A stretch of DNA of 64,000 nucleotides, from the NCBI GenBank assembly GCA_965224435.1, contig OZ245048.1:1724511-1788510 (forward strand). Reading direction: 5' to 3'. The notes below the pieces were generated by a model. That model worked only from the letters and a program-made list of their open reading frames with translations, was not told the DNA's origin and ran no database searches. Source of the stretch: Acidimicrobiales bacterium (GTDB taxonomy: Bacteria; Actinomycetota; Acidimicrobiia; Acidimicrobiales; SZUA-35). A program made the translations under genes and the position numbers. Each line of letters starts with the position of its first letter. The first letter of the stretch is position 1. This document shows, piece by piece, positions 24,570 to 44,759 of this stretch.

Positions 24570-25391
24570 ATGATGAAGGACAGAGCAGTGTCTGAACAGG
24601 TTTCCCCCAGTGACATCCCAGTTGTGATCCTCTGCGGAGGGCAAGGAACCCGAATTCGGGAAGCATCCGAGAGCCTGCCCAAACCGTTGATCGATATTGG
24701 CGGCAAGCCAATCCTTTGGCACATCATGAAGAGTTACCACTCTCATGGTTTTCGCCGCTTCATTCTCTGCCTGGGGTACAAGGGCTGGAATATCAAAGAA
24801 TACTTCCTTCGATATCAAGAGAATGTCTCGGACTTCACTCTCGAACTCAGTTCCGGCACCGGCCCCAACTTCCACGGCCACGGTACTGACGACTTTGAGG
24901 TGTCACTGGTCGACACCGGTCTGAATACCGGAACTGGCGGTCGCATTCCCAAGATAGCCCACCTGCTGGATCAGGACTATTTCATGCTCACCTATGGCGA
25001 TGGCCTTGGTCCCGTCAATGTTGGGGATGAGCTCCAACAACTGGCTAGTTCAGACAACCTCGGCATGGTGACCGGCGTTCACCCAACCTCTCGTTTTGGT
25101 GAATTGCACTGTGTCGACGGCATGGTTGAGAACTTCGCGGAGAAGCCAGCCTCAACCGGCTGGGTATCTGGCGGGTTCTTTGCCTTCCGCAAGGAGTTCC
25201 TGGACTACCTGGACCCCGAGGACCCTGACCAGATGTTGGAAAGTCAGCCGCTACAACAGCTGGCTCGAGACGGCAAGCTCTCCATGTACGAACATGAAGG
25301 TTTCTGGATGGGCATGGACACCTTCCGTGAATACACCGCATTGAATGAGATGTGGGCCGCCGATGAAGCTCCTTGGAAGACCTGGGAGTAG
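24570..25391 (+). CDS. rfbF: glucose-1-phosphate cytidylyltransferase
   Basis: Similar along its length to my recollection of enterobacterial RfbF/DdhA. Matching segments include 'VVILCGGQGTRIRE...KPLIDIGGKPILWHIMKSY...LGYKG..IKEYF' and an identical C-terminal 'APWKTWE'. Confidence 0.92.
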   Translation: MMKDRAVSEQVSPSDIPVVILCGGQGTRIREASESLPKPLIDIGGKPILWHIMKSYHSHGFRRFILCLGYKGWNIKEYFLRYQENVSDFTLELSSGTGPNFHGHGTDDFEVSLVDTGLNTGTGGRIPKIAHLLDQDYFMLTYGDGLGPVNVGDELQQLASSDNLGMVTGVHPTSRFGELHCVDGMVENFAEKPASTGWVSGGFFAFRKEFLDYLDPEDPDQMLESQPLQQLARDGKLSMYEHEGFWMGMDTFREYTALNEMWAADEAPWKTWE

Positions 25392-25432
25392 CCACCAGTG
25401 ATCGGTGGGGCGAAGCAAACGGGAAGTATTCG

Positions 25433-26329
25433 ATGACGATGATGTCGGCATCGGTCATCATCCCCGCTCACAACGAAGAGGCCACTATTGAGGCTTGCCT
25501 TGACGCGGTCTTGGCCAGTGAATTGTCTTCTGGTGCTGTTACTGACCTAGACATTGTGGTTGTCGCCAATGGGTGTACCGACAAGACAGCCGTCATTGTC
25601 GAAGGCTACGCGGCTCCCGTGCGCTTGATCGACACGCCGGTTGGCTCCAAAGCCAATGCTCTCGAACTTGGTCGGGCCGCTACCCAGCCGGGCAATCGGA
25701 TCTACCTGGATGCTGACATCGTGGTGTCGCCTGACGCCATCGATTCTGTCCTGAAGTCGCTGAATAGCGACGGCATCGAAGGCTCAGCACCCCGGATTGA
25801 CCTGGCTCAACCGCAGTCGGCCAGCCTGCCGCTGCGCCAGTACGCCCGGATCTGGGAGCAGGCTCCCTACTTCGGCTCTGGACTCATTGGCTCCGGTTTC
25901 TATGGTCTGACCGAAGAAGCTCAGACCAGGATTGGTGGCTGGCCTAGCTTGATCGCTGATGATCTGGTGGCACTTTGCCACCTCAAGCCCCAAGAGCGGC
26001 AGACAGCTGCTGGCTGGTTCCGCCACACCTTGCCCAGCCGGCTACGAGATGTAGCCAAGGTGGAGGTTCGTCGCGAGGCTGGACGAATGGAGTTTGCTGC
26101 CTGGGCAGACGCTGAGGGCCGCTCGGTGGCCGAAGAAAGCCCGGGAGGGAACTGGCTCGGTGAGCTGGCCCGCAGCCCGAAGAACTGGCCAGGACTTGGA
26201 TTGTTTGTAGCGGTCAAGGTGGTGGCCAAGATCCGGGCCAAACGTGCTTTTGATGGCGGCAGCATTGCCTGGGGACAGGATCAGCATGGTCGTTCGCTGC
26301 GCGCCCGTGACGCAGCGTCGACTGAGTAG
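25433..26329 (+). CDS. GT2-family glycosyltransferase
   Basis: Contains 'SVIIPAHNEEATIEACLDAVL', 'IVVVANGCTDKTA' and 'YLDADIVV'. I chose ATG 25433 to avoid overlap with rfbF (the listed ORF starts at 25373). Confidence 0.8.
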   Translation: MTMMSASVIIPAHNEEATIEACLDAVLASELSSGAVTDLDIVVVANGCTDKTAVIVEGYAAPVRLIDTPVGSKANALELGRAATQPGNRIYLDADIVVSPDAIDSVLKSLNSDGIEGSAPRIDLAQPQSASLPLRQYARIWEQAPYFGSGLIGSGFYGLTEEAQTRIGGWPSLIADDLVALCHLKPQERQTAAGWFRHTLPSRLRDVAKVEVRREAGRMEFAAWADAEGRSVAEESPGGNWLGELARSPKNWPGLGLFVAVKVVAKIRAKRAFDGGSIAWGQDQHGRSLRARDAASTE

Positions 26330-26401
26330 ACAACTGACTGGCCGTCTGGAAAATCGGGTTGCCTGAGAATCTGGTCGGCTCGCGGTTTTCTTAATTTTCG
26401 G

Positions 26402-27697
26402 CTAGGAGGAGAACGTCGCTGTCTGCTCGCTCCGAAGCTGATCGCACAGTCGACCTTCCGGCAGGCTGACATCGGCGTAAGAAATGATCTGGTCCTTGGC
26501 GATGTCGCGAGTGAGGACACATCCTTCAGCCAGGCCCATTGGTAGCAGCTCCTGCTTCTGGCAGACATCAGAGTTCTCGGCTACTCCGTAGGTGTCGAAT
26601 CCACCGATGTAGTCCAGGGTTTGTCCGGCCTTGAGATCTTGCTTGGCCGCCGTGAGAACATCGACAACGGGTCCACCGATTGGCGCAATGGCTGCATCGC
26701 CGAAATGCACTGCCCGAGCCACGGTCAACGGTGCTTCAAAGTGGCAGATGTGGAAGGGGGTGTAGAAGACATAGAGGGGGCCGTCGCCCAGCTTGTAGTA
26801 CTGCAGATACTGGCGCTGGATCGGGTCATCCTGATGGGCGACGACGAAAACTCCACCAGGTGGCTTGGCCCCCAGCACATAGTCAACAATGCCGGGTCCA
26901 GCTGAGTCACCAAGATAGGGATCAAGGTCAAAGATGGTTTTAGCCTCGTCAACCTCCTCACAGCGGTAGCCGTACATGCCCCTCGTGCCGACACCGAAGC
27001 CGGTGGCGTTAGCAACGACGGCCATTTCCATTGAAATTTTGGAGCCGTCGGCGAAGGAGGTCACCATGCGCGGTTCCTGGTTGTGCATCTCGGCAAAGGC
27101 CTTCTGGGTTTCCGGAGTGCGGTAGGGATCTTGCAGGCCCTTCATATTGCCGGCCAGGACCGGCTTGAGACCGATGGACTGCACGTAGCGGAACAGGTTC
27201 ATGATCACGCCGGGCTGATCGCCGTCAGCATTGGTGTAGATCACACCCTGCTCATCGGCGTACTTCTTCAGAAGGGGGCCAACAGTCGCGTCAAGCTCGG
27301 CATTCATCAAGATGACGTGCTTGCCGTTCTTGATGGCCGACAGGACAACATGGGCGCCGAACTCGATCTCACCGGTTACTTCGATGATGGCGTCGATGCC
27401 GTCGGCTTGACACAACAGGAACGGATCATCGGTCACCGCGAACTGACGAGTTTTGATGCTGTCTTCGAGCTGGCCGACCGAGCTCACACGGTTGACCTCG
27501 TTGGCTCCGCCTTGGGCGTAGGCCGTCTCGGCCTTGGAGACGGTGCGGTTCGAGATGGCGGCGAGGTGCATGCCGGGTACCGAGGTCAAGATCTGCATGG
27601 CGATGCCGCGACCCATATAGCCAGCGCCGATGATGCCAACTGTGATTGGGTTGTTGTCTTGTTGACGTTGGGCCAGGGCACTATCGATAAGGATCAT
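26402..27697 (-). CDS. NAD(P)-binding oxidoreductase, homoserine-dehydrogenase-like with a C-terminal SAF-like domain (COG4091-like)
   Basis: Has a Rossmann motif 'ITVGIIGAGYMGRGIA'. At ~430 aa its architecture resembles COG4091 proteins. I prefer ATG 27697 (the listed ORF extends to 27787 and would overlap the upstream epimerase gene). Confidence 0.55.
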   Translation of the reverse strand: MILIDSALAQRQQDNNPITVGIIGAGYMGRGIAMQILTSVPGMHLAAISNRTVSKAETAYAQGGANEVNRVSSVGQLEDSIKTRQFAVTDDPFLLCQADGIDAIIEVTGEIEFGAHVVLSAIKNGKHVILMNAELDATVGPLLKKYADEQGVIYTNADGDQPGVIMNLFRYVQSIGLKPVLAGNMKGLQDPYRTPETQKAFAEMHNQEPRMVTSFADGSKISMEMAVVANATGFGVGTRGMYGYRCEEVDEAKTIFDLDPYLGDSAGPGIVDYVLGAKPPGGVFVVAHQDDPIQRQYLQYYKLGDGPLYVFYTPFHICHFEAPLTVARAVHFGDAAIAPIGGPVVDVLTAAKQDLKAGQTLDYIGGFDTYGVAENSDVCQKQELLPMGLAEGCVLTRDIAKDQIISYADVSLPEGRLCDQLRSEQTATFSS

Positions 27698-27705
27698 GAA
27701 TCTGC

Positions 27706-28254
27706 CTATTCCTGCTTGAAGTCTGGCTGAAAATCGGGCCAGTCCTGGTCCTTGTCGGAGATCAGATAGCCGCCAGTATCCGGCCACTCAATTCCAAAGG
27801 CTGGATCATTCCATCGACATCCTGCTTCATGACCTGGAGCATAGAAATCCGATACCTGATAGTGGACTTCAGCATTGTCTTCCAACGTGAGGTAGCCGTG
27901 GCCAAAGCCCTTTGGTACATAGAGTGAAAGATGGTTTTGCGCCGAGAGCTCGAGTCCGAACCAGTCAGTGAAGGTGGGGGAGTCTGGACGTAGATCGACA
28001 ATGGCATCGAAAACTGCGCCGCGGCTGCAGCGGACAACCTTGACTTCGGCATGAGGGGCAAGCTGCCGATGCATTCCACGAAGCGTGCCCTTCGTATTAT
28101 TGAAGGCGACGTTGGCTTGAGCCAGGTCGGTGTTGAGGCCATGCGCGGCTAGCTCGTTCTTGCACCAGGCTCGCCCAAAGAAGCCTCGATCATCTTCGAT
28201 TCGGTCAACGTCAAAGATATAGGCACCCTGTAGTGGAGTTTCGGTGATCTTCAT
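27706..28254 (-). CDS. RmlC-family sugar-nucleotide 3,5-epimerase (cupin)
   Basis: Contains 'GTLRGMHRQ...KVVRCSRGAVFDAIVDLRPDSPT...YVPKGFGHGY...WNDPAFGIEWP', including the His/Tyr catalytic context of dTDP-4-dehydrorhamnose 3,5-epimerases. Confidence 0.88.
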   Translation of the reverse strand: MKITETPLQGAYIFDVDRIEDDRGFFGRAWCKNELAAHGLNTDLAQANVAFNNTKGTLRGMHRQLAPHAEVKVVRCSRGAVFDAIVDLRPDSPTFTDWFGLELSAQNHLSLYVPKGFGHGYLTLEDNAEVHYQVSDFYAPGHEAGCRWNDPAFGIEWPDTGGYLISDKDQDWPDFQPDFKQE

Positions 28255-29360
28255 TGGGGACCGCCCATATTCTCAAACTCAGAGATCTGAGCCTCGCTCA
28301 GACTCTTCATGTTGGCACCTTCTTGGAACGACTTGTACCAGAGTGTTGTCCATCGCAGGGCTGTTGCCAGGTCAAGACGTGGGCTATACCCCAGCCGGTT
28401 GCCGGCCTTGGAGATGTCGAGTTTGAGATACTGGGCTTCATGGGGATGATCGCCTCCGTCCAGCTCCCAACGGGCCCCGGCTCCCCATTCCTTGGTGACA
28501 CGATCGACGATCCAGCCGACCGGCTTGGCATCATCTTCCTTGGGACCGAAGTTCCAGCCCTCAGCCACCTGGGCATCGTCCGATGCTGCAGCGGTCTCAC
28601 TGCTCTTCTTCCCTTGTTGGAAGAGTCGTTCGGCCAGAATCAGGTAACCGCAAAGCGGCTCGATGACGTGTTGCCATGGCCGGATGGAATTTGGGTTGCG
28701 AATGATGACGGGCTCGTTGTTCATCATGGCTCGCATGATGTCGGGGATGAGACGGTCTCCAGCCCAGTCACCACCCCCGATGACGTTGCCCGCTCGAGCG
28801 CTAGCCAGGGAGGTCGCTGAATCTGGTCCAAAGTAGGAGCGTCGATAGGCAGAGATCACAAGCTCGGAGCAGCCCTTGCTGCTGGAGTATGGATCGTGGC
28901 CACCCATGGCTTCGTTCTCACGGTATCCCCAATCCCACTCGCGGTTCTCGTAACACTTGTCGGTGGTGATGCAAACCACTGACTTTGCGCTGCCACTTCG
29001 ACGCACCGCTTCGAGAACGTTTGCCGTTCCCATCACGTTCGTTTCATACGTTTCGATTGGATTGTCATAGCTGTATCGAACAAGGGGCTGGGCGGCAAGG
29101 TGGAGCACAATGTCGGGCTCAGCCTCAGCGACGGCTGTCGTCACCCGCTCAAGGTCTCGGATATCGGCTTCGATGGAATGCATGCCTGACGCCACGTTGG
29201 CGGCCTCAAACAAGCTCGGGGTCGTGGGTGGGGCGAGCGAGTAACCTGTGACGTCAGCTCCCATGCCCTGCAGCCAGAGAGCGAGCCAGCTTCCCTTGAA
29301 ACCTGTATGCCCGGTCAGGAAGACTTTCTTGCCGGTCCAAAACTGCCGATTAGGGTTCAT
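28251..29360 (-). CDS. rfbG: CDP-glucose 4,6-dehydratase
   Basis: Contains 'FWTGKKVFLTGHTGFKGSWLALWL', 'TDKCYENREWDWGYRENE', 'YSSSKGCSELV', 'RAGNVIGGGDWAGDRLIPD' and 'IRPWQHV'. These closely follow my recollection of RfbG/DdhB. Confidence 0.92.
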   Translation of the reverse strand: MNPNRQFWTGKKVFLTGHTGFKGSWLALWLQGMGADVTGYSLAPPTTPSLFEAANVASGMHSIEADIRDLERVTTAVAEAEPDIVLHLAAQPLVRYSYDNPIETYETNVMGTANVLEAVRRSGSAKSVVCITTDKCYENREWDWGYRENEAMGGHDPYSSSKGCSELVISAYRRSYFGPDSATSLASARAGNVIGGGDWAGDRLIPDIMRAMMNNEPVIIRNPNSIRPWQHVIEPLCGYLILAERLFQQGKKSSETAAASDDAQVAEGWNFGPKEDDAKPVGWIVDRVTKEWGAGARWELDGGDHPHEAQYLKLDISKAGNRLGYSPRLDLATALRWTTLWYKSFQEGANMKSLSEAQISEFENMGGPQ

Positions 29361-43383: not shown

Positions 43384-43685
43384 GAGCGTAGGACCCTTGT
43401 CCCTGCTTGCCTTTGAGAGCGGGCAATTCGACTCTATGAGTGCCTACCAGGCATATCAAGCGTTTGGTCAGACTGATGTTGCCGAGCCCGATGAGCTGGA
43501 GGGCTTGTGTGAAGAGAAGCGGGGGCGTTGTTGGTCTGAGAGCTTACGATTGCACCATCAGAGTCGATGGGTTCAGAAGGGAATACTATGAGCGACGGCA
43601 AAAACTGCCCGTTCCTGGCAGTACTACCTCAGCGTGAATGGGCAGTTGGCTCGTCCACCCGATATCGCTACCGCGGAGAACTCCT

Positions 43686-44759
43686 ATGAAGACAGTCATT
43701 ATCACCGGATCAGGCGGCCTCATTGGCGCTCAAGCAGTGCGGTTTTTTGCACCATTGGCGGACAAGGTCATCGGTGTCGACAATGACATGCGGGCCTATT
43801 TCTTTGGCGCTGAGGCCTCAACTGACTGGGCGGTTGCGGAGCACAAGTCATCGCTTGCCAACTACGAGCATCGTTCGCTTGATATCAGAGACCGTCGGGC
43901 AACACTTGATTTGTTGGCCGAGCACAGCTCGGACATCGAGCTGATCATCCATACCGCTGCTCAGCCGTCACATGACTGGGCAGCCAATGAGCCCTTCACT
44001 GACTTCGATGTCAATGCTGGTGGCACCTTGAACCTTTTGGAAGCCGCTCGACAGTCCTGTCCGAAGGCGACCTTCATCTTTACCTCGACCAACAAGGTCT
44101 ATGGCGATACACCTAACCGACTGCCCCTAATTGAGCTGGACACCCGGTGGACGCTGGACCCAAGTCATGAATGGGCCGAGTTCGGATTCCCCGAAGAAAT
44201 GTCGATTGACAACTCGACACATAGCCTCTTTGGTGCTTCCAAGGTTGCCGCTGACGTCATGGTGCAAGAGTATGGGCGCTACTTTGACATGAACACCGGC
44301 GTATTCCGAGGTGGTTGCCTGACGGGCCCTGGCCACTCAGGCGCCCAGTTGCACGGTTTCTTGGCCTACCTCATGAAGTGCACCACAACGGGCGATCCGT
44401 ACACCGTGTTTGGCTACAAGGGCAAGCAGGTTCGCGACAACATCCACGCCGATGACCTGGTGCGAGCCTTTGAGGCCTTCCACAAGGCTCCGCGTGCGGG
44501 TGAGGCCTACAACATTGGTGGCGGCCCCGAAGCCAACTGCTCAATGATGGAAGCGATCGAGCTTTGTCAGACGATTGCTGGAAAAGAGCTTGATCACTCC
44601 TACGCCGAGGACAACCGCATTGGGGATCACATCTGGTGGGTTTCCGACATCCGAAAGTTCAAGGACCACTTCCCTGAGTGGAAGCTGAACTATGACATCA
44701 CCGGCATCCTGCAGGACATCCATGACAATGGTGTTGAACGCTGGTCCGCCTGTGACTGA
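43686..44759 (+). CDS. NAD-dependent SDR epimerase, CDP-paratose 2-epimerase-like
   Basis: Contains '[14 protein letters not shown]', '[15 protein letters not shown]', 'TSTNKVYGD', '[14 protein letters not shown]', '[15 protein letters not shown]' and 'YNIGGG'. These parallel my recollection of Salmonella RfbE (tyvelose epimerase). SD 'ggaga' precedes ATG 43686. Confidence 0.75.

Follow-up and report, generated by a model that had tools for sequence, protein, structure and literature searches.

A stretch of 64,000 bp from the genome of an Acidimicrobiales bacterium (contig OZ245048.1, positions 1,724,511 to 1,788,510; termed here the window) carries five adjacent genes that may constitute one pathway leading from glucose-1-phosphate to a cytidine diphosphate (CDP)-activated 6-deoxy-L-hexose. 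The proposed terminal enzyme, acting on a CDP-4-keto sugar, is an NAD(P) oxidoreductase related to the type II reductoisomerases of DXP (1-deoxy-D-xylulose 5-phosphate), or DXR-II. This protein, which fits the type named DLO1, would serve as C4 reductase, a reading that we favour but hold tentatively. What differs from the otherwise similar CDP pathway of Campylobacter jejuni HS:41 is the family of the last enzyme, together with the lack of a mutase; the step that this enzyme would catalyze is predicted from sequence. The genes under study, and a more distant one coding for a short-chain dehydrogenase/reductase (SDR), are the following:

24570..25391, + strand: RfbF-like sugar-1-phosphate cytidylyltransferase (273 aa), a divergent family member (TIGR02623 and PF00483)
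25373..26329, + strand: family 2 glycosyltransferase (GT2; 318 aa; PF00535, 61.9 bits)
26402..27697, − strand: DXR-II-like (DLO1-type) NAD(P) oxidoreductase (431 aa; PF21135 DRL_cat, 181.5 bits)
27706..28254, − strand: RmlC-type NDP-4-keto-6-deoxyhexose 3,5-epimerase (182 aa; TIGR01221)
28251..29360, − strand: CDP-glucose 4,6-dehydratase RfbG (369 aa; TIGR02622)
43638..44759, + strand: CDP-tyvelose 2-epimerase-like SDR (373 aa; PDB matches 1ORR and 9RL0)

The five genes are organized in two convergent units, the rfbF-GT2 pair on the + strand facing rfbG, rmlC and the oxidoreductase gene on the − strand. The rfbF gene is not part of the rfbG operon: it lies on the opposite strand and is coupled to the GT2 gene, whose start overlaps the rfbF stop by 19 nt. 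The GT2 enzyme probably uses the CDP-sugar. Within the rfbG operon, rfbG overlaps rmlC by 4 nt, its stop codon and the rmlC start codon being combined in the sequence ATGA, and the rmlC stop is separated by 8 nt from the ATG of the oxidoreductase gene, both junctions being read directly from the sequence. An earlier note on this DNA had described rfbG as operonic with the epimerase and oxidoreductase genes through junctions of 4 and 8 nt, and the ORFs and junctions were verified. The initiation codon of the oxidoreductase was assigned to the ATG at 27697, an assignment backed by homologues of ~430 aa with the same amino-terminus. A start at the GTG at 27787, as in the listed ORF, was rejected since it would run into rmlC and the ~430-aa homologues favour the ATG.

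The oxidoreductase matches the Brucella abortus protein DRL (PDB 3UPL/3UPY) with an E-value of 2.6e-74. Its AlphaFold model (predicted local distance difference test (pLDDT) of 80) has a template modelling (TM) score of 0.85 to 3UPL, and the next structural matches are homoserine dehydrogenases and Gfo/Idh/MocA sugar dehydrogenases with TM scores of ~0.4. The earlier note had considered the protein homoserine-dehydrogenase-like or COG4091-like; the profile and structure searches that it proposed retain the NAD(P) oxidoreductase but place it more exactly in the DXR-II-like/DLO1 group. According to Carretero-Paulet et al. (2013; PMC3847144), the family comprises three clades, DXR-II, DLO1 and DLO2, the last two being uncharacterised, with neither a function nor a gene context given, and the DLO members tried do not complement a dxr mutant. 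In the same work position 229 is Leu, Ile or Val in DLO1 and Pro, Ser or Ala in DLO2, residues K191 and T229 are reported to bind the phosphonate group of fosmidomycin, Nostoc/Anabaena and Coxiella burnetii appear in the DLO1 list, and a functional-divergence analysis suggested that DXR-II gained constraints after its split from the DLO clades.

Residue states were mapped onto the numbering of PMC3847144 by alignment of the oxidoreductase to 3UPL. The window protein shares with Brucella DRL the Pfam catalytic domain, the three-domain fold, the Rossmann motif, Lys193, the DGSK motif (D225/K228) and Glu232. It differs from DRL by replacement of DXR-II signature residues (K191N, T229I, H250Y, R320T, and E168Q, which turns GDEP into GDQP) and by the position of its gene in a sugar-nucleotide operon rather than in isoprenoid synthesis. 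Over 15 members of the clade, the replaced states show little or no variation; neither the Rossmann motif nor the D-x-x-K pair common to homoserine dehydrogenase and DRL varies. The hydrophobic residue found at position 229, Ile, is the DLO1 state. Orthologues from Nostocales, a group present in the DLO1 list, are ~60% identical to the window protein and belong to the same tree, which was built without the sequences of PMC3847144 themselves. These features fit a DXR-II relative of the DLO1 type that would not be a DXP reductoisomerase, because the signature residues are replaced and the genome codes for a Dxr of the canonical type (411.7 bits; cut-off 315.7).

The enzymes acting upstream are assigned with different degrees of certainty. 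RfbG scores 492.7 bits on TIGR02622 over its full length (cut-off 278.45) and RmlC 168.2 bits on TIGR01221 (cut-off 155.75), the best PDB match of the latter being the RmlC structure 3RYK (E-value 3e-43). The RfbF-like protein scores 272.9 bits on TIGR02623 over its full length, which is under the cut-off of 300.25, while the canonical RfbF of related cassettes reaches ~455 bits. It is 82% identical to its counterpart in the sister locus L020, where the same divergent RfbF form and the same rfbF-GT2 pair are found (68% identity for GT2), and has ~43% identity with canonical RfbF proteins from other cassettes, in contrast to the ~65% identity of the oxidoreductase across those cassettes. RfbF and RfbG had both been regarded as unambiguous. 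This is correct for RfbG, but the window RfbF is a divergent member of its family whose nucleotide and sugar specificity is less certain than was assumed. Its gene is the only cytidylyltransferase candidate in the genome.

The genome (4.39 Mb, 93.7% complete) was searched for enzymes that could provide a conventional continuation of the pathway. The absence of the 3-deoxygenation enzymes had been pointed out before; the search proposed then was run for E1 and no RfbH/E1 was found genome-wide (best NF011936 score of 118.8 bits against a cut-off of 423), while E3, for which no separate search was made, would have no substrate because E1 is absent. Four DegT-family proteins of the genome keep the catalytic Lys and are ordinary aminotransferases encoded more than 950 kb away. 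The usual RmlD/SDR 4-reductase is also missing, as had been stated: the rfbG-rmlC-oxidoreductase operon contains no SDR, and the best TIGR01214 score for RmlD in the whole genome is 56.3 bits (cut-off 224). No pyranose/furanose mutase of the GLF family was found in the genome, where RmlC is present in a single copy.

A dTDP-glucose 4,6-dehydratase gene, rmlB (452.7 bits; dTDP, deoxythymidine diphosphate), adjoins a WecE-like aminotransferase gene 2.6 Mb from the window (G000:C1:4347366-4350396). This pair is a separate route to a dTDP-4-amino-4,6-dideoxyhexose, without an RmlC or RmlD of its own. The presence of RmlB implies that a dTDP-4-keto sugar exists in the cell, but the window rmlC is translationally coupled to rfbG. 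The SDR encoded at 43638-44759, described earlier as a CDP-sugar 2-epimerase-like protein at a distance of 14 kb, is indeed closest to CDP-tyvelose 2-epimerase (1ORR, E-value 4.5e-34; 9RL0, E-value 5.8e-33) and has no NCBIfam equivalog. A counterpart adjoins the oxidoreductase cassette in none of the other 80 loci inspected (see below). It is a possible accessory CDP-sugar enzyme, which could epimerise the CDP-hexose at C2.

In the pathway that we favour, the RfbF-like enzyme would make CDP-D-glucose and RfbG would convert it to CDP-4-keto-6-deoxy-D-glucose, both steps being proposed from family assignment. RmlC-type enzymes depend on a 4-keto group, which their product retains. The RmlC-type cupin of the window would use this group to epimerise C3 and/or C5, as expected from its family and from the precedent of C. 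jejuni HS41.19 for a CDP-linked substrate. Since the 4-keto group is left by RmlC, another enzyme must consume it, and in compact operons such as L021 the oxidoreductase alone remains for that role. The DLO1-type enzyme would then reduce the C4 carbonyl with NAD(P)H, replacing an RmlD/SDR reductase, to yield a CDP-6-deoxy-L-hexose of unspecified C3/C4 configuration; this step is proposed from gene linkage and from the requirement that the 4-keto group be consumed. The GT2 coupled to rfbF, judging from that gene coupling, would finally move the sugar into the sulfated polysaccharide of the surrounding locus. Support for the pathway comes from rfbG, rmlC and the oxidoreductase gene being translationally coupled, from the lack of another reductase in the operon, and from a genome without RmlD, E1 or mutase. 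The earlier proposal of a non-canonical reductase for the last step agrees with this situation: the only candidate for that step is the oxidoreductase, which is not an SDR.

Rather than being special to the window genome, the gene set is a cassette conserved over many phyla. Homologues of the oxidoreductase form more than 8000 clusters at 90% identity (E-value below 1e-20), with 58-67% identity between phyla. A scan of GTDB species representatives identified at least 504 encoding loci, and the gene context was inspected in the best 80, which span more than 15 phyla, with a Methanoperedens archaeon among them. An rmlC gene is found at 3 kb or less from the oxidoreductase gene in 75 of these 80 loci, mostly directly upstream and on the same strand. 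Four of the five loci without a nearby rmlC break off 350 nt or less upstream of the oxidoreductase gene, and in the remaining one, L089, ~1.8 kb of upstream sequence contains no rmlC. Most of the 80 loci also have a canonical rfbF, as do nearly all of those with enough flanking DNA. The genes located between rfbF and rmlC correspond to three alternative modules, each in about one quarter of the 80 loci (examples are L050:6365-11314, L084:4628-11317 and L051:5303-11287):

module A, 21-23 loci: RfbG, as in the window
module B, 24 loci, including Nostocales: LhgO-like FAD oxidase and GalE-like SDR
module C, 22 loci: UGDH-like 6-dehydrogenase and UXS/ArnA-like SDR

Compact type A operons, for example L021, contain only rfbF, rfbG, rmlC and the oxidoreductase gene. 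A quick maximum-likelihood tree of the oxidoreductase follows the module: it needs 14 label changes, compared with 44 for shuffled labels, and none of 200 shuffles gave as few. In this tree every module contains a mixture of phyla, and the module B clade has 100% support. Three modules that generate 4-keto sugars feed the same RmlC-oxidoreductase pair and their common substrate feature would therefore be an epimerised CDP-4-keto sugar. We infer that the oxidoreductase takes as its substrate the product, whichever it is, of RmlC action on a CDP-4-keto sugar, and that the enzyme and the upstream chemistry have diversified together. The window carries an ordinary type A example of this widespread cassette.

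The relation of the window to systems described in the literature is closest for C. jejuni HS:41. That pathway was reconstituted with a cytidylyltransferase, a 4,6-dehydratase, a 3,5-epimerase acting on CDP-4-keto-6-deoxyglucose, an NADPH-dependent C4-reductase and a mutase (HS41.21 to HS41.17), and its products are CDP-D-fucose as well as CDP-6-deoxy-L-altrose (Simons, Narindoshvili and Raushel 2025; PMC12369002). It runs without E1/E3, so that the earlier statement that all known CDP pathways continue through this enzyme pair does not hold. Its first three steps (cytidylyltransferase, 4,6-dehydratase and RmlC-type epimerase) are those proposed for the window, where the cytidylyltransferase match is full-length but under its cut-off, and are likewise followed by an NAD(P)H step. 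The two systems differ in the reductase, HS41.18 (36.6 kDa, annotated as nucleotide-sugar dehydratase) being probably of the SDR type to judge from its annotation and size while the window has a 431-aa DXR-II-like protein, and also in the pyranose/furanose mutase of HS:41, for which no equivalent was found in the window genome. The view that the route is uncharacterised is maintained for one with a DXR-II-like last enzyme, for which the literature searched gave no function. Altogether, the observation made in the earlier note is confirmed and its interpretation is right in substance, though partly supported.

The order of a nucleotidyltransferase, a 4,6-dehydratase, RmlC and a final NAD(P)H-dependent enzyme is also the one of the dTDP-L-rhamnose (RmlABCD) and dTDP-dihydrostreptose pathways. 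The window differs by the use of CDP instead of dTDP and by a genome without an RmlD above cut-off. The pathways to CDP-3,6-dideoxyhexoses (paratose, abequose, tyvelose and ascarylose) differ by their E1 enzyme (RfbH/DdhC), which was not found in the window genome. The heterocyst envelope polysaccharide (HEP) island of Anabaena sp. PCC 7120 (alr2825 to alr2841) includes alr2825 (cytidylyltransferase), alr2827, alr2830 (rfbC) and alr2831 (oxidoreductase), a layout matched by the Nostocales loci; unlike the window, which has RfbG, these loci use module B.

Several points weigh against a plain C4 reductase acting on the product of the upstream enzymes. The nearest characterised relative of the oxidoreductase is a reductoisomerase and not a plain ketoreductase, and the literature search found no function for DLO1, nor CDP-glucose in connection with a reductoisomerase or a homoserine-dehydrogenase-like protein. 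Residues 187-243 of the structural model, which form the catalytic loop, are predicted with low confidence. The window RfbF is under its family cut-off, and its specificity for CTP and glucose-1-phosphate is presumed by homology; sequence cannot separate a 3-, 5- or 3,5-epimerase for the window RmlC. Finally, the linkage counts overstate independence because related genomes share genes and labels.

An unlikely alternative is that the oxidoreductase is a true sugar-nucleotide reductoisomerase. It would carry out a DXR-type α-ketol (retro-aldol/aldol) rearrangement of CDP-4-keto-6-deoxy-L-hexose followed by reduction of the aldehyde: C2 would migrate from C3 to C4, C3 would become a formyl branch, and the product would be a dihydrostreptose-type 3-C-hydroxymethyl furanose linked to CDP. 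With modules B and C, sugars resembling dihydrohydroxystreptose and apiose would result from the same reaction. Such a rearrangement and reduction, on a ketone beside a hydroxyl, are carried out by DXR, dihydrostreptose synthase and UDP-apiose synthase, the last two acting on NDP-4-keto sugars. This shared chemistry speaks for the alternative, as does the identity of the closest characterised relative, a DXP reductoisomerase with the same three-domain fold (TM score 0.85). The residues changed include the phosphonate anchors K191 and T229, and D225, K228 and E232 are kept, which fits the same chemistry on another substrate. Circumstantial arguments come from the glycoside hydrolase (GH) 140 "apiosidase-like" gene present inside the cassette in eight Chloroflexota loci and from C. 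burnetii, a member of the DLO1 list. Published work implicates the region of the Coxiella RmlC (CBU1838) in dihydrohydroxystreptose synthesis, a pathway whose ring-contraction enzyme is missing; the papers give the SDR as CBU_1837 and RmlA as CBU_1834. However, E168 of GDEP is Gln in the window protein, and the constraints gained by DXR-II after the DLO split (PMC3847144) leave room for ancestral chemistry of a simpler kind. The apiosidase-like gene occurs in one phylum only, is not found in the window genome, and belongs to a family named after a single characterised member. That DLO1 enzymes in general are sugar-nucleotide reductoisomerases acting on RmlC-epimerised CDP-4-keto sugars, to give branched 3-C-hydroxymethyl furanoses in all three modules, we regard as rather unlikely.

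A different position or step for the oxidoreductase (for example oxidation or reduction at C2 or C3, or net epimerisation), with C4 reduced by an SDR from outside the operon such as that at 43638-44759, is improbable. This SDR resembles CDP-sugar enzymes, and its gene and the operon share a polysaccharide supercluster. An extra SDR of unassigned role is present in module B cassettes, and the distant structural relatives of the oxidoreductase include Gfo/Idh/MocA sugar dehydrogenases acting at various positions. But in none of the other 80 loci does the cassette come with this SDR, and compact type A operons leave no other enzyme to remove the 4-keto group. Hardly any weight can be given to a genuine DXR-II of the methylerythritol phosphate (MEP) pathway placed beside sugar genes by chance, even with the PF21135 match and the strong match to Brucella DRL. 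The canonical Dxr and the replaced signature residues led us to reject a DXP reductoisomerase role, Thr229, Lys191, His250 and Arg320 all being replaced (nearly) invariantly in the clade. The failure of DLO representatives to complement a dxr mutant (PMC3847144) and the near-universal linkage to rmlC are further arguments against it.

The oxidoreductase family is very large, unusually conserved between phyla (58-67% identity), and has no assigned function. Its cassettes occur in the Anabaena HEP island, in many sulfate reducers, in Chloroflexota and in cyanobacteria, in one Methanoperedens archaeon and, going by the published DLO1 clade list, in C. burnetii. Assignment of its reaction would name the new activated sugar or sugars in many cell envelopes and would also tell if a sugar-nucleotide enzyme was the ancestor of DXR-II. 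If the enzyme were a reductoisomerase, a widespread hidden class of branched sugars would exist in bacterial and archaeal envelopes, a candidate would be available for the missing ring-contraction enzyme of Coxiella, and DXR-II would find its evolutionary origin.

Homologues of the oxidoreductase were found in 18 of 24 genomes of the actinobacterial family to which the window belongs, with more than 80% identity only in congeners. Those of other genera of the family (G003-G023) are ~50% identical to the window protein. Because this value is below the one observed for type A proteins from Chloroflexota and Proteobacteria (65-67%), it suggests that the genus acquired the cassette by lateral transfer.

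Additional genes and sequence features were noted in some cassettes. A PF13204 gene (GH140 "apiosidase-like", formerly DUF4038) is located between rmlC and the oxidoreductase gene in 8 of the 80 loci, all from Chloroflexota (L028:8646-9977, L023:3267-4571 and six more); none was found in the window genome. The RmlC proteins linked to the oxidoreductase carry the motif A-H-G-Y, the canonical RmlC motif being A-H-G-F. The residue following "HG" is Met in CBU1838, where it is said to make room for a 6-OH. This residue was tried as a marker to separate the three modules and failed, Tyr being found in nearly all their RmlC proteins (window and L020-L099); it marks the cassette-linked RmlC lineage and not 6-OH versus 6-deoxy substrates. 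In Trueperaceae cassettes (L084:7714-9450 and L086) a PF07995 gene coding for a 578-aa glucose/sorbosone-dehydrogenase-like protein is found between the SDR gene and rmlC.

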